Positions 40,409 to 61,068 of a stretch of 64,000 nt of DNA are shown here, piece by piece (position 1 is the first letter of the stretch; each line of letters opens with the position of its first letter). This DNA comes from Staphylococcus phage pSco-10. The position numbers and the translations under genes were made by a program. Location: sequence record KX011028.1; one strand, 5' to 3'. The notes under the pieces were generated by a model. It searched no databases, was not told the origin of the DNA, and saw only the letters and a list, made by a program, of their open reading frames with translations.

Positions 40409-41422
40409 TTATAGATAAATAAATTTATACTTTTTACAATGCTTACTTTTACCTTTTAAAACTTTACTTATATTTGGTGCTGATGCATTAATTAATCTAG
40501 CTACTTCATTAACAGTACCTTCAACTGTTTCACCTGTAACCATATGTGTTCCTTTAATCATTTTCTTTTGGCTTCTTTTACGTGCTTCTTCAGGTGTATA
40601 TTTGTATTCTTCATCTACTAGTCTAAACATTTTGTTATTCAAAGTAAGTCTATCAATATTACCATATAAGTAAGAAGATACCCCTTTTATTCCGGTCTCA
40701 ATTTCACACTCTTTAATAGAGTTAAATATAGTTTCTTCATTTTTATCTAAATCATACATAGCTATTGATGTTGTTTTTCTTGGTCTGTTTTTGATACTCT
40801 CTTCTTTTTTGATTCTTCTTGTCTCTACATAAGTCTTTCTTTCTAATTCCTGCTCTTCATTTACTAAACTAAACTTGTATCCTGATGTGGAGTTTAGTTC
40901 CCCGATTAAACATTTGTAAAAATTACTATCTGTAAGTTTATACTTATTGATAATATCATTATAACTACCTGTATATAAATAACGACCATTCTTTGTGTAG
41001 ACATTAATATCACCATCAAATTTTAAAGAAGTAGTGTACACTTCTACTGTATCAGGTTTCTTAATCTCTGTAAAATAGTTTCTTAAAATTTGATATACTT
41101 GCTCTAAGGTTTTATTTTTATAACTTATATCTATATAAATTATATTATTGTTATCACAATATTCTTTTTTAATTCTATCAAGTAATTTTATTCTATCAAA
41201 ATCTAAATTGAATACTTGTCTATAATGTTGTTCACCCATATATTCAATACAATAAAATTTTCCTTGGTATTCTACTAAAAAATCCATTCTTTGTTTTGTA
41301 CCTATGTTGTTCCTAAAAGAATATTCTCGTTTATACTTCATATTATTAAAACCTAAAATTGAATCTACTAATCGTTCCCCATGAGAACCTAGTACTTTAT
41401 CTGAATATATCATTGATATCAC
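40409..41422 (-). CDS. free-standing homing endonuclease-like protein with an N-terminal Vsr/DUF559-like nuclease domain
   Basis: RMDFLVEYQGKFYCIEYMGEQHY is shared with ORFs 51768..52292 and 58823..59770. Confidence 0.7.
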   Translation of the reverse strand: MISMIYSDKVLGSHGERLVDSILGFNNMKYKREYSFRNNIGTKQRMDFLVEYQGKFYCIEYMGEQHYRQVFNLDFDRIKLLDRIKKEYCDNNNIIYIDISYKNKTLEQVYQILRNYFTEIKKPDTVEVYTTSLKFDGDINVYTKNGRYLYTGSYNDIINKYKLTDSNFYKCLIGELNSTSGYKFSLVNEEQELERKTYVETRRIKKEESIKNRPRKTTSIAMYDLDKNEETIFNSIKECEIETGIKGVSSYLYGNIDRLTLNNKMFRLVDEEYKYTPEEARKRSQKKMIKGTHMVTGETVEGTVNEVARLINASAPNISKVLKGKSKHCKKYKFIYL

Positions 41423-41474
41423 CTTCCTATTATTAATATATCATAAGTGTACCATAACTTTTACACTTTGTCAA

Positions 41475-41506
41475 TAAAAAAAAGACCTAACTTTTATTGT
41501 TAGGTC
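41475..41506 (-). terminator. rho-independent terminator after the tail tube gene's last exon
   Basis: Hairpin gaccuaac/guuagguc followed by an 8-9 nt U run on the minus strand. Confidence 0.7.
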
Positions 41507-41518
41507 TTAATAGGAAAT

Positions 41519-41545
41519 TTAAGTTCTAGCCTTATCTGATGCTGT
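41519..41545 (-). CDS. tail tube protein exon 3 (TASDKART plus stop)
   Basis: In-frame continuation after predicted intron 2, ending in TAA. Gives a 142-aa product overall. Confidence 0.6.
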   Translation of the reverse strand, partial: TASDKART

Positions 41546-41833
41546 CCTCTATACCCTATCTTTCGATATATTTTAAAGGGAGTAGACTATACCATAATCT
41601 TAATGTGTAACTAAGACTCACTTATTATAGTCGTTGAAGCTTCCCACTCTCGTAGGCTTGCCTGCGTATCATCTATTTTACTGTACTTAGGGTTTAACCT
41701 TATACTATACTAGATATTTTTTCTGATTTCTCAACATTCAAGCTTACCCTTTCAGGTTACTTTGTAGTTATCTAGTCTTTAAGACTTTCACGCAATTTAA
41801 AGTGTTTTCTATGCTTGTCACCAAACATAGCCT
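41546..41833 (-). ncRNA. ORF-less group I intron 2 in the tail tube gene (288 nt)
   Basis: Proposed P1 is exon CCUU, a 9-nt loop, IGS GAGG. Q-like aauccgcagg, R-like uucaacgacu and S-like agucu elements are present. Terminal G. The intron begins with UAA. Paralogous to intron 1. Confidence 0.65.
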
Positions 41834-41896
41834 CTATTAGTTAAAGGTAGCTAAACTCAATTTCTTCTGTTACAATTTCATTTGTCTGCCACGTCT
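41834..41896 (-). CDS. tail tube protein exon 2 (NYNETWQTNEIVTEEIEFSYL)
   Basis: 63-nt in-frame segment between two intron-like repeats. Exon 1 ends in U and the intron ends in G. Confidence 0.6.
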
Positions 41897-42239
41897 CGTT
41901 GTAGTTCACTTATACCCTATCTCTCGATATATTTAAAGGGGTTAGACTGTCCCATGTCCCTTATTTCTAAGGTGACTACCTATTACAGTCGTTGAAGCTT
42001 CCCACTCTCGTAGGCTTGCCTGCGGATTTCCTATTGATTGAGTACTTAGGACATTAATAATGTGTCGTTAGTTATTAATGCTTTTATCTCACCATATACT
42101 ATCCAATTAATTTTTTCTGATTTCTCAACATTCACGCTTACTCTTTCAAGTTACGTTGTAGTTTAATTGGCTTTAAGGTGTTCCCGCAATTTCAGGTATT
42201 ATTCGACTATACATTACTGTATAGAAGCAACAATTATTT
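41897..42239 (-). ncRNA. ORF-less group I intron 1 in the tail tube gene (343 nt)
   Basis: Proposed P1 is exon CAAU, an 8-nt loop, IGS GUUG. P2 hairpin cuauaca/uguauag. P4 ugcggg/ccgca. P7 gacu/aguc. Terminal G. Confidence 0.65.
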
Positions 42240-42578
42240 ATTGGCACTACATCCGTGGTAACTAATAATAACTTGTTTTGTTAAGTTATCTACTACTAAA
42301 ATATCAATGATATCTTTCTTAAGAATTTCTTCACCAAGTGAAGCATATCCTAAATCTGCAAAGTTTTCTTTTTTCATACGTAAACGTTCTACTGTAATTG
42401 TACCCTCATAACGTAAGTATACGTGTTCTTGAGGCATGATAGAACCGATTTCGTATACACCAGTTGTACCATATTCACGAGTACCTGATGCTGATTGTGC
42501 TCTTCCTACCGGTTTACCTTTAATCATAAGTAGGACGGTATTACCAGTATGGACGGTTTGTTTAGCTTCTGATGCCAT
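42240..42578 (-). CDS. tail tube protein exon 1 (113 codons)
   Basis: The track ORF 42234..42578 ends 2 codons into the intron (AAA TAA). RBS TTAGGAGAG. Confidence 0.85.
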
Positions 42579-58738: not shown

Positions 58739-60021
58739 CAATTACTACCGCTAGTTTCCTAGTATTTGTTTTACGGTTTAGACTATATCATAACCCTTAG
58801 TTTAGGTTAAGGGCTCTCTGCTTTACACTAATAATTTTTTATCTAAATATCTTGCTATAGTATTATAATATTTTTCAGTATACTTAATTTCAATTAACTT
58901 ATATCCTTTTTCGTTTGCATACTTTCGTTTAATATTATCTTTTATAACTTGCTGTTCATATGCTTCTTTACCACCAAAACTATCTATTGGCATGTAGTGC
59001 TGAGCTCCATTATATTCTATTAAGATGTTTAACTCAGGTAAATAAAAGTCGTAGGATAAGTTTCTTTTGTATACTAAATCAGAAAACTTCTTCTGAGTTT
59101 CAAACTTGATATCTCTACTATTAAGATATTTTTCTACATGTTTTTCTCCAATAGACATTTTACATGTAGGACACATATCTCTTGTTAGTAAATGATTAGG
59201 TTTGATTTCCCATTCTGTTCCACATTTATGTCTTACTAGTATTTTGTTTTTTGAGTTAATATAGGTTCCTAGTACTTTGTAGTCACTACCATATCTATCC
59301 TTAACCTCCTTAACAAATACTTCGTGAGGCTTTCTTTGGCTAAGGTTATGAGACTTAATACGACAATACCAACATCTAGAATGTGAAGATATGAAAGCGT
59401 TAGGTGTAACCTCCCACTCCTTGTTACATTCTGTGTGTCGTAGTGTTACTTTATTATAAACACCATTGTATTCTCCTACTAAGATGTACTCCTCTCCTAC
59501 TATGTTGTATAACTCTTTCTTAAACTGTTCAGTAGTTTTAGTTTTTTTACCTTTTGTTTTGTTATTACATTCCGGACATCTTGTTCCTTCTAATACACTT
59601 TTAGGTCGAACCCAATACTTATGATGGTTACAATTCTCTGAGTTGTGTTGTATTAAAACTTTAGTATGGTTATTTGTATACTCACTTAACAAATTATATT
59701 CATCTTTTACCTTAGAGAATAATTTATTTTTAAATTCTTCTGTTGTCATCCTTCGTGCCAAATTAAGCACCTCCTTATTATTAATATTATTTTTTTAAAA
59801 AATTATTAGTTTTTATCTAGTTCTCACTTACACCTTTTTGTAAGTTACCTAGAAATTTAGTCGTTAGGCATTTAGTTAACCTTACAAATACACTATAACA
59901 TGTATTTTATATAAAGTCAACACTTAGCACGGGATTATCATATGCTTCTTTAAGCACTTAGATTTTCCCCGTTTAACAGAGTTCTTCGATACACATTACT
60001 GTGTAAAGGGGCTACCTATTT
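58739..60021 (-). mobile_element. group I intron in terL (about 1.28 kb) carrying a homing endonuclease ORF
   Basis: 5' splice site after GGT (plus 60022-60024). Proposed P1 is exon GGGU, a 9-nt loop, IGS GCCC. R-like cuaacgacuaaa precedes the ORF. S-like gauauagucu and a GAAA-tetraloop P9 (cuag gaaa cuag) follow it. The 3' splice site is uncertain. Confidence 0.6.
58823..59770 (-). CDS. intron-encoded homing endonuclease with zinc-finger DNA-binding modules and a C-terminal Vsr/DUF559-like nuclease domain
   Basis: Several C..C/H..C knuckles. C-terminal DFYLPELNILIEYNGAQHY. AAGGAGG RBS with an ambiguous TTG/GTG start. Confidence 0.75.
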   Translation of the reverse strand: MLNLARRMTTEEFKNKLFSKVKDEYNLLSEYTNNHTKVLIQHNSENCNHHKYWVRPKSVLEGTRCPECNNKTKGKKTKTTEQFKKELYNIVGEEYILVGEYNGVYNKVTLRHTECNKEWEVTPNAFISSHSRCWYCRIKSHNLSQRKPHEVFVKEVKDRYGSDYKVLGTYINSKNKILVRHKCGTEWEIKPNHLLTRDMCPTCKMSIGEKHVEKYLNSRDIKFETQKKFSDLVYKRNLSYDFYLPELNILIEYNGAQHYMPIDSFGGKEAYEQQVIKDNIKRKYANEKGYKLIEIKYTEKYYNTIARYLDKKLLV

Positions 60022-61068
60022 ACCCAGTGAATAATTATAAAAGGCTTGTTTTGATTCTGTGTTCATTTCTTTTTCAACAAGTTGGTCTGCAGAAATCCAT
60101 ACAGCGTTCATTTGAGATATATAGTAACCTCTAATACCTGAGTTATTTTTGGTTCTATCAGGGTAACGACATTCCCATACCCCATTATACCATCTATCTA
60201 AAGGTTTACCACATTTTTGACATACATATTGATAAGTACCATCTTGAACTGTTTTTGCTGTTTCATCTATACCATCAGGATTAACTAATAATAAATTACC
60301 ACTTTCCATCAAATTATTTTCATCATATGGTGCATATTTCATCTCATTATGATAATCACAATGTTGACAAACATGTGCATAATACCATTGGTCAGATTGT
60401 TGGTAAAGTTTATGAATACCAATTCCAGGTGCTGAAGGTGTTGAGAACCTACGTACTATTTGGAATGTAGAACTTGACATGGACTCTAGTGCAGAAGACT
60501 CAGCAAGGCTATTTACCCTCTCATATTCATCCATTGCAAGAAAATCTATATCTACACCTTCTACTGTTCCTGGTTTACTACTTGTTCTAAAGAATAAACT
60601 AGAGTTTCTTATCTGTTTATACCCTAAAGAATCTTTATCCCAATTAACTATATCAGTAAAATATCTCTTCTCTAATACAGGATTTAACCTAGATTGAACA
60701 AATTTTTTCATCTGCTCGTTGGTCGGGAAGGTGTAAAGACATTTAGGTGATTTATAACTATACATATCTGCAAAATGAACCATTTCCATTACACTCATCT
60801 CACTCAAACCAAGCTGTCTGCTTTTTATTACTGCTTTATTTGGATGAGTGTCATTTACTATACGGACTTGCCACGGTCTATGAGCCTGTGCTTTACTTCT
60901 ATCCCTCTTAGGAATACTGAAAGTTATAGGGTGACCCCTTAACGTGTGATACTTAAGCATATAGGTAGAAGGGTTTAACATATTGATTATATGGTCTACC
61001 TGTTCTCTTGTTATTTTTTCTGTTTGAAATGTTTCTTGTGCTATCTTAATTAGTTCTTTTCCATCCAT
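60022..61068 (-). CDS. terL: terminase large subunit exon 1 (ATPase domain)
   Basis: 349 codons of terminase ATPase up to ...NYSLG. The track ORF continues only AAA TAG into the intron. Confidence 0.8.

Follow-up and report, generated by a model that had tools for sequence, protein, structure and literature searches.

Two putative group I introns without open reading frames in the tail tube gene of Staphylococcus phage pSco-10

Introduction

How can a phage produce a complete tail tube protein from a gene whose open reading frame (ORF) breaks off early? The question is raised by a window of 64,000 nucleotides (nt) of Staphylococcus phage pSco-10 (sequence record KX011028.1; the window is the whole stretch analyzed), in which the tail tube gene (tmpA) lies on the minus strand, as do all features of the window described below, immediately 3′ of the gene for the 587-amino-acid (aa) tail sheath protein. 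The tube region matches that of Staphylococcus Kayvirus phages (Herelleviridae, Twortvirinae), with phage SA3 as the best match (99.2% over 1.3 kb). To judge from the sequence, tmpA very probably contains two paralogous group I introns that lack ORFs, splicing of which would give a tube protein of 142 aa and spread of which would be linked to a nuclease gene nearby. Twort-like phages are well known for group I introns in essential late genes, those in the tube gene since 1999, and the pair in the window is a further case.

Predicted Exon–Intron Structure of tmpA

The annotated stump ORF (42578..42234) encodes 114 aa and ends ...GCC AAT AAA TAA, and the 811 bp that separate it from the next gene, at 41422, contain no minus-strand ORF of at least 30 aa. 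This stretch holds two repeats with a mean column identity of 80% when aligned; as delimited below, introns 1 and 2 share 77% identity. An initial annotation, made from the letters alone, had described the same layout (a 114-aa ORF ending AAA TAA, then an ORF-less stretch of two similar repeats) and had proposed that removal of two introns joins three exons into a single frame of 142 codons. The layout and the 142-aa product both hold, the latter with corrected coordinates: the proposed intron ends at 42239 and 41546 are retained, whereas those at 41897 and 41833 are each 10 nt off and are replaced by 41907 and 41843. Literal removal of 41897–42239 and 41546–41833 causes a frameshift with stops (...CSANRRGRQMKL, then a stop codon).

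Exon 1 (42240..42578; 339 nt, codons 1–113, ending ...GCC AAU) was placed by the ORF list, the spliced translation, and colinearity with homologs. Intron 1 (41907..42239; 333 nt, ORF-less) follows nt 339 of the coding sequence (CDS) and is delimited by its match to Rfam family RF00028, by covariation, and by its boundaries. Exon 2 (41844..41906; 63 nt, 21 codons, NYNETWQTNEIVTEEIEFSYL) follows from the spliced translation and the reading of the junctions. Intron 2 (41546..41843; 298 nt, ORF-less) is inserted after CDS nt 402, as indicated by RF00028, covariation, and the P1 pairing, and exon 3 (41519..41545) consists of 24 nt encoding TASDKART plus the TAA stop codon, again from the spliced translation. 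When joined, the 339, 63, and 27 nt form 142 codons and a stop. Unspliced RNA has a stop one codon after the first 5′ splice site (AAA TAA) and directly at the second (TAA, zero codons), which agrees with the initial annotation's range of 0–2 codons. Both introns contain stops in all three frames and no maturase ORF.

The boundaries of intron 1 have a single placement that satisfies both colinearity and the requirement for U before the intron and G as its last nucleotide. For intron 2, insertion after nt 401 is also compatible with that requirement and was ruled out by phage vB_Sau_CG and by the P1 pairing CCUU/GAGG; in vB_Sau_CG, which is without the site-402 intron, TAC CTT ACG is continuous, so that the site of intron 2 is nt 402.

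Comparison with intact genes is consistent with these junctions. The spliced 142-aa product is 99.3–100% identical to uninterrupted homologs (99.3% as a single tblastn piece in G1, SA5, IME-SA2, and others), and the uninterrupted genes of G1, SA5, and IME-SA2, like chain 8q01, are colinear through ...CSANNYNETWQTNEIVTEEIEFSYLTASDKART. In the Protein Data Bank (PDB) entry 8q01, "Tail tube protein" (a 142-aa chain, with ten further entries), residues 1–142 align to residues 1–142 of the spliced product with one substitution. As the initial annotation had anticipated, these homologs extend past ...CSANK and are colinear over the full length.

Selection on the Downstream Exons

Compared with the intron-free allele of phage-K-type genomes, exon 2 is changed at 7 of 63 nt and exon 3 at 8 of 24 nt, all synonymously; taken together, 15 of 87 nt differ and 11 of 11 changed codons are synonymous. 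Because all 11 codon changes are silent, selection appears to act on a frame that exists only after splicing, and exons 2 and 3 are apparently under purifying selection in that frame.

This pattern bears on the idea that the insertions are decayed, non-splicing remnants, with the 114-aa stump or another tube protein in use and the downstream exons as junk. GenBank annotation, which gives the stump ORF only, would agree with such decay, but the synonymous changes make it highly improbable, as do the C-terminal 29 residues of the tube, which are conserved across Herelleviridae and form part of the solved 142-aa chain. The same arrangement recurs in many independently isolated viable phages, the RNA fold is kept by compensatory evolution (see section Group I Identity of the Two Insertions), and there is little room for a second tube protein: tblastn with the spliced tube gives 758 places in 757 records, or essentially one tube locus per genome, with 707 phage records covering at least 80% of the query.

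Group I Identity of the Two Insertions

Read as RNA, both repeats carry the elements of a group I intron. In intron 1, the guide GUUG (42231..42228) pairs with the exon end CAAU, with a closing U·G pair and a P1 loop of 8 nt, and is followed by P2 (42224..42207), a hairpin with a GNRA loop. The P3 strands lie at 42198..42194 and 41981..41977, those of P4 at 42189..42184 and 42025..42020, and those of P7 within 41995..41986 and 41949..41943; an extra 10-bp hairpin occupies 42081..42051, and the terminal G is at 41907. In intron 2, the guide GAGG (41834..41831) pairs with CCUU, again closing with U·G, with a loop of 9 nt, and P2 (41830..41809) likewise has a GNRA loop. Its P3 strands lie at 41804..41800 and 41623..41619, its P4 strands at 41795..41790 and 41667..41662, and its P7 strands within 41637..41628 and 41589..41583, and it ends with the G at 41546.

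The initial annotation had already named both P1 pairings with their U·G closure and 8–9-nt loops, together with P2, P4, Q-, R-, and S-like motifs and a terminal G; all of these are present (UGCGG/CCGCA, aauccgcagg, uucaacgacu, and agucu). The P, Q, R, and S elements read AAAUUGCGGGAA, AAUCCGCAGG, CUUCAACGACUG, and ACAGUCUA, respectively, and intron 2 has equivalents. Both introns conform to the rule of a U before the 5′ splice site that forms a U·G wobble with the guide, and the same rule is seen in relatives at sites 328, 345, 355, 366, 374, 382, 386, 391, and 409.

A covariance search of a 1.3-kb slice with RF00028 (Intron_gpI), a check suggested with the initial annotation, returns matches in both repeats, that of intron 2 scoring 50.7 bits (E = 1.3e-11; gathering score 50). 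Weak matches to ncr1241, STnc220, rox2, and group-II-D1D4 in the slice (E at least 0.9) were dismissed as chance.

These matches also bear on whether the exons might be joined other than by RNA splicing, that is, by translational bypassing like that of T4 gene 60 or by ligation at the protein level. A stop codon stands at or near each junction, as such joining would have it, but this is nothing specific, and both gaps match RF00028, have U·G at the 5′ end, and terminate in G. The gaps measure 333 and 298 nt, and all ribosomal hops known to us are far shorter; an intein-like ORF is likewise absent, and all frames contain stops. Joining of this kind is thus scarcely credible, and splicing of two group I introns is the better account of the locus.

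Related loci (L001–L094, from Staphylococcus- and Bacillus-type phages) were surveyed, and the exons of these relatives were mapped by a spliced-alignment script and by hand (L023 and L027 were excluded). Covariation was scored in 11 aligned members of the window's intron family, leaving out the Bacillus-phage intron of L082, which was misaligned in the MAFFT alignment. The fold was built by hand from intron 2 and comprises P2, P3, P4, P5, P5a–d, P6, P6a, P7, P8, P9, and P9a, with a P3/P7 pseudoknot. Across the 11 members, 94.2% of cells are standard pairs, compared with 34–43% when the 3′ partners are slid by 1–3 columns; the former percentage is inflated because the fold was taken from one of the aligned sequences. 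Double-sided changes, which are not inflated thereby, occur in 32 of 65 pairs, whereas sliding leaves 2–4 of them. The observed values were not reached in any of 500 shuffles. In this alignment, one or more compensatory pairs occur in every one of P3, P4, P5, P6, P7, and P8, P5a exists in six distinct, fully paired 7-bp versions among family members, and introns 1 and 2 differ from one another in a compensatory manner in P2, P3, P4, P5, P5a, P7, and P8. These data argue that both insertions are group I introns, which are probably self-splicing.

The family is set apart by its architecture. Its P5 extension measures about 110–145 nt and carries GAAA-tetraloop hairpins. In intron 2, P3′ runs to intron nt 225 and P8 starts from nt 227, and the two are separated by 4 nt in intron 1; in introns of the Twort family, 70–110 nt lie between P3′ and P8. 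P7.1/P7.2 between P3′ and P8 is the mark of subgroup IA2. Because they have a large P5 extension and no space for P7.1/P7.2, the window introns do not share the IA2 architecture ascribed to I2 and I3 of Twort.

Predicted Splicing Pathway and Its Possible Need for Protein

The pre-mRNA of the tube gene, which would be transcribed late, is predicted to span exon 1 and both introns and to end at a terminator immediately 3′ of exon 3. Folding of each intron would yield a group I core (P3–P8, with the P3/P7 pseudoknot) and a large P5 extension with its GAAA-tetraloop hairpins, and the 5′ splice site would be chosen by the 4-bp P1 closed by U·G (CAAU/GUUG in intron 1, CCUU/GAGG in intron 2). Excision would proceed via two guanosine-dependent transesterifications, ending at the terminal G of each intron. 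The ligated exons would then encode the full 142-aa tube, whereas unspliced RNA would give the 114-aa stump.

Several points weigh against this reading. The RF00028 match of intron 1 in the 1.3-kb slice reaches 31.0 bits (E = 1e-5) and lies under the gathering score of 50. A scan of the whole 64-kb window with RF00028 detects neither intron, at the gathering score or in E-value mode, because the speed filters of Infernal drop both; annotation of whole genomes with Rfam will systematically overlook this intron family. The proven self-splicers, Twort I1–I3, belong to another sequence family, with at most 62% identity to the window introns, and splicing in pSco-10 is something that we infer from sequence. 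Finally, P1 has just 4 bp and the P10 pairing is weak (about 2 bp in intron 1, none obvious in intron 2), so that splicing might require assistance to be efficient in vivo.

The short P1 and weak P10, the sub-threshold score of intron 1, and the distance from the Twort introns shown to self-splice would also be compatible with genuine group I introns that do not self-splice and that need a host or phage protein (an RNA chaperone or a maturase-like factor), possibly as a means of temporal control of the tube. We consider such dependence unlikely, since the catalytic core is complete and covarying, several GAAA-tetraloop hairpins are present that are typical of self-stabilizing tertiary contacts, and neither intron encodes a maturase. 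The same intron is moreover found in at least three genera whose hosts range from S. aureus to S. xylosus, and self-splicing in vitro is usual for group I introns of phages. Self-splicing of both introns thus remains the favored reading.

Relation to the Introns of Twort, 812, and Other Phages

The initial annotation had been reminded of orf142 of phage Twort, and could not say whether orf142 is this gene. It is: Twort orf142 is the tail tube gene and contains three self-splicing group I introns (Landthaler and Shub, 1999, as cited in PMC11878797 and PMC10136302), and its locus is organized in the same way. Exon skipping is reported for orf142 (PMC11878797; PMC10136302). Introns I2 and I3 are described as IA2. 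The Twort genome yields three RF00028 matches (63.6, 97.4, and 100.9 bits), and the mapping used here recovers introns after nt 345, 386, and 409, a 23-nt exon as published, and a product of 142 aa after splicing. Twort and the window share the gene and its 3′-terminal region, tandem, highly similar, ORF-less introns, a 4-bp P1 with U·G, and an ORF of the "intron encoded nuclease" type directly downstream. They differ in the number of introns, three in Twort (345, 386, and 409) and two in the window (339 and 402), with no site in common. The guide GUGC (pairing with GCAU) is common to Twort I2 and I3, in line with the skipping reported for the 23-nt exon; in the window the two guides are distinct, and the middle exon of 63 nt is in frame. 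Skipping of exon 2 would stay in frame and give a tube variant of 121 aa, and may be rarer than in Twort because the guides GUUG and GAGG differ.

Phage 812 and its relatives have two non-coding tube introns and a nuclease, and the mutant 812a lost them together (PMC6445280). Phage 812 thus resembles pSco-10 in genus and gene, in having two ORF-less introns, and in a free-standing nuclease immediately downstream; phage K is without both. However, the 812-type introns follow nt 355 and 391 and belong to a Twort-like family, unlike the 339/402 pair, and the 812-type nuclease has 467 aa and about 55% identity to the window nuclease in the N-domain only.

One feature of the 812-type introns deserves separate mention. 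The intron after nt 355 (L005, 2856..3160, in phage PM32) apparently ends in A and not in a terminal G, with ...CGTAATAATAACA as the intron end and GGCAGACC as the start of the next exon. This end was placed by colinearity of NETWQT, by the homologous position in relatives, and by a 5-bp P10 (GGCAG/CUGCU); the intron has a good 7-bp P1 and an unchanged P7. The PM32 intron is identical in 812, 812h1, Fi200W, 676Z, and U16, and in a BLAST search of GenBank phages PM32 matches 812, Fi200W, and 676Z over the junction at 100% identity; a 100-nt stretch over the junction is 100% identical in at least nine records. No 812-type 3′ junction turned up in a pattern scan of IMG/VR. The 812 tube gene is listed as 426 nt (141 aa) (PMC6445280), and because of that length the authors of that work seem to have chosen another junction.

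Close counterparts are phiIPLA-RODI, Romulus, Remus, SA11, and StAP1, which carry the window intron family and a site-402 intron 99–100% identical to that of the window; in those of their records that were inspected, the tube-gene insertions are not annotated. In these phages the first intron follows nt 328 (guide GACC), whereas in the window it follows nt 339. The nuclease of phiIPLA-RODI is 95% identical to that of the window; the Remus type, unlike the window, has no adjacent nuclease. A transcriptome of phage K holds no splicing data for the tube gene, and phage K is without these introns (PMC9241854). The 339/402 pair belongs to another family and occupies other sites than the Twort and 812-type introns, although it may already be described in the Kayvirus/Silviavirus literature.

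Transcription Unit and Adjacent Nuclease Gene

A hairpin with a T-run, resembling an intrinsic terminator, lies directly 3′ of the exon 3 stop (41482..41508), and no minus-strand terminator-like site is found between exon 1 and exon 3. The hairpin thus presumably marks the end of the tube transcription unit. Beyond it lies a promoter-like site (41446..41474; TTGACA, a 17-nt spacer, TACACT, and an upstream TG), which is a match to the consensus only, and then a predicted free-standing homing-endonuclease gene (40409..41422) encoding 337 aa from a GTG start; in relatives the annotated start is an ATG located three codons inward, for a length of 334 aa. The gene appears to be free-standing and not intron-encoded because a promoter-like site of its own follows the terminator.

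The ORF matches PHROG 7140, "intron encoded nuclease" (6.8e-100), and the C-terminal part of the protein contains DNA-binding modules like the NUMODs of I-HmuI. For the N-domain, NCBIfam and Pfam give no match and a PDB sequence search gives chance matches only; a fold search indicates a fold like that of Vsr and I-Bth0305I (PDB 3r3p). I-Bth0305I, an EDxHD enzyme of the Vsr fold, shares with the window nuclease a Vsr-like fold joined to DNA-binding modules, but its sequence identity to the window nuclease is only 19%, and the window protein is free-standing rather than intron-encoded and has modules of the I-HmuI NUMOD-like type.

Probable Mobility of the Introns

The nuclease lies on a 1.06-kb segment that behaves as an indel and is missing in intron-free phage-K-type genomes. 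A homolog of its N-domain is found 3′ of the tube gene in 16 of 21 intron-bearing and 0 of 5 intron-free Staphylococcus-phage loci; the loci are phylogenetically related, so that the counts are not independent, and this, like the five intron-bearing loci without the nuclease (the Remus type, L016–L018 and L020), speaks against the proposed linkage.

Divergence along the gene is uneven. Compared with the phage-K-type allele, the tube gene differs by 2% in nt 1–300 and by about 20% in nt 301–426. Intron 2 is 100% identical in the Silviavirus phages Romulus, StAP1, MR003, KSAP11, and SA11, and between the window and Silviavirus Remus the tube gene differs at 14% of positions in exon 1 but at only 1 of 87 nt in exons 2 and 3. 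Identity of intron 2 across two genera points to a recent intergeneric transfer with co-conversion of the flanking exon, and the pattern of divergence and identity carries the marks that would be expected of transfer by double-strand-break repair with co-conversion.

As the introns encode no endonuclease, their spread probably depends on the adjacent nuclease, which may be what drives the transfer. During co-infection, the free-standing Vsr-fold endonuclease would cleave alleles that have no introns, and their repair would bring in the introns together with the adjoining exon sequence and the nuclease gene, in what is called collaborative homing; the introns would also shield their own genome from the nuclease. 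The concept is reportedly due to Bonocora and Shub and to Zeng and colleagues, both in 2009, from T-odd phage and cyanophage systems. The likeness of the pSco-10 locus to collaborative homing lies in ORF-less introns beside a free-standing endonuclease, joint presence and absence, and a divergent tract of flanking exon; the difference is that two introns, not one, flank the presumed target region.

Insertion Sites in Herelleviridae Tube Genes

The 3′ end of Herelleviridae tube genes is a hotspot of introns: at least 11 insertion sites were recognized within about 80 nt, after CDS nt 328, 339, 345, 355, 366, 374, 382, 386, 391, 402, and 409, and a P1 guide that fits was identified for each. The number of introns per gene ranges from one to four, with four in CIFT_MFB_MRSA13 and three in B2-102 and Twort. 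Contigs of Bacillus-type phages (L082–L084 and L075) have introns at 328 and 382, and the 3′ end of the L082/L084 intron is nearly the same as that of the site-328 intron of Staphylococcus phages. The intron family of the window occupies four sites, 328, 339, 366, and 402, with the guides GACC, GUUG, GUUC, and GAGG, respectively, and apparently moves by retuning of the short guide alone. A more tentative proposal, which we regard as doubtful, is that this hotspot, the last ~100 nt of the tube gene, would be driven by an arms race with the neighboring free-standing Vsr-fold endonucleases, in which insertions break the targets and immunize their carriers and the introns at 339 and 402 bracket such a target.

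Some genomes that match intron 2 contain four to six places matching the window intron family, which probably occurs in other genes too.

A Probable Third Intron in the Terminase Gene

A probable third group I intron (about 60021..58739) splits the gene for the terminase large subunit (terL). The terL ORF (61068..60016), which encodes a GpA_ATPase domain, stops two codons beyond a GGGU junction, with which a guide reading GCCC can pair. Elements resembling P, Q, and R lie at about 60000–59860 and an S-like element, GATATAGTCTA, at about 58790. An ORF of 315 aa (59770..58823) is embedded in the candidate intron and has a C-terminus, DFYLPELNILIEYNGAQHY, similar to the nuclease motif of the ORF beside the tube gene. 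Rfam gives no match to the candidate even when the search is narrowed to a slice of 3 kb; the inserted ORF of 1 kb is the probable reason. A terL intron has been reported in kayviruses (PMC7997843).

Consequences for Annotation and for the Study of Mobile Introns

As the initial annotation had suspected, such loci are annotated as truncated tube genes: the stump ORF only is given for SA3, HN01, vB_Sau_CG, phiIPLA-RODI, Remus, and the Twort RefSeq entry (stumps of 112–121 aa in KY794641, NC_028765, NC_022090, NC_007021, MF001365, and PQ156939), and the window-type pair is unannotated in GenBank. The records of Remus and PM32 have "promoters" annotated within introns. No intron was detected in tmpA according to the description of vB_Sau_CG (PMC5526547); contrary to this, its genome contains the 333-nt site-339 intron. 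In therapy-relevant genomes of Kayvirus and Silviavirus, an essential tube protein is thus routinely listed as a stump of 112–121 aa, and the practical value of the finding is one of annotation quality.

For the biology of these phages, the tube locus offers a compact natural system in which to study the movement of ORF-less introns to further sites and their interplay with free-standing homing endonucleases. It may merit specialist follow-up on account of its many insertion sites, the intergeneric identity of intron and exon, and a nuclease present only beside intron-bearing alleles.

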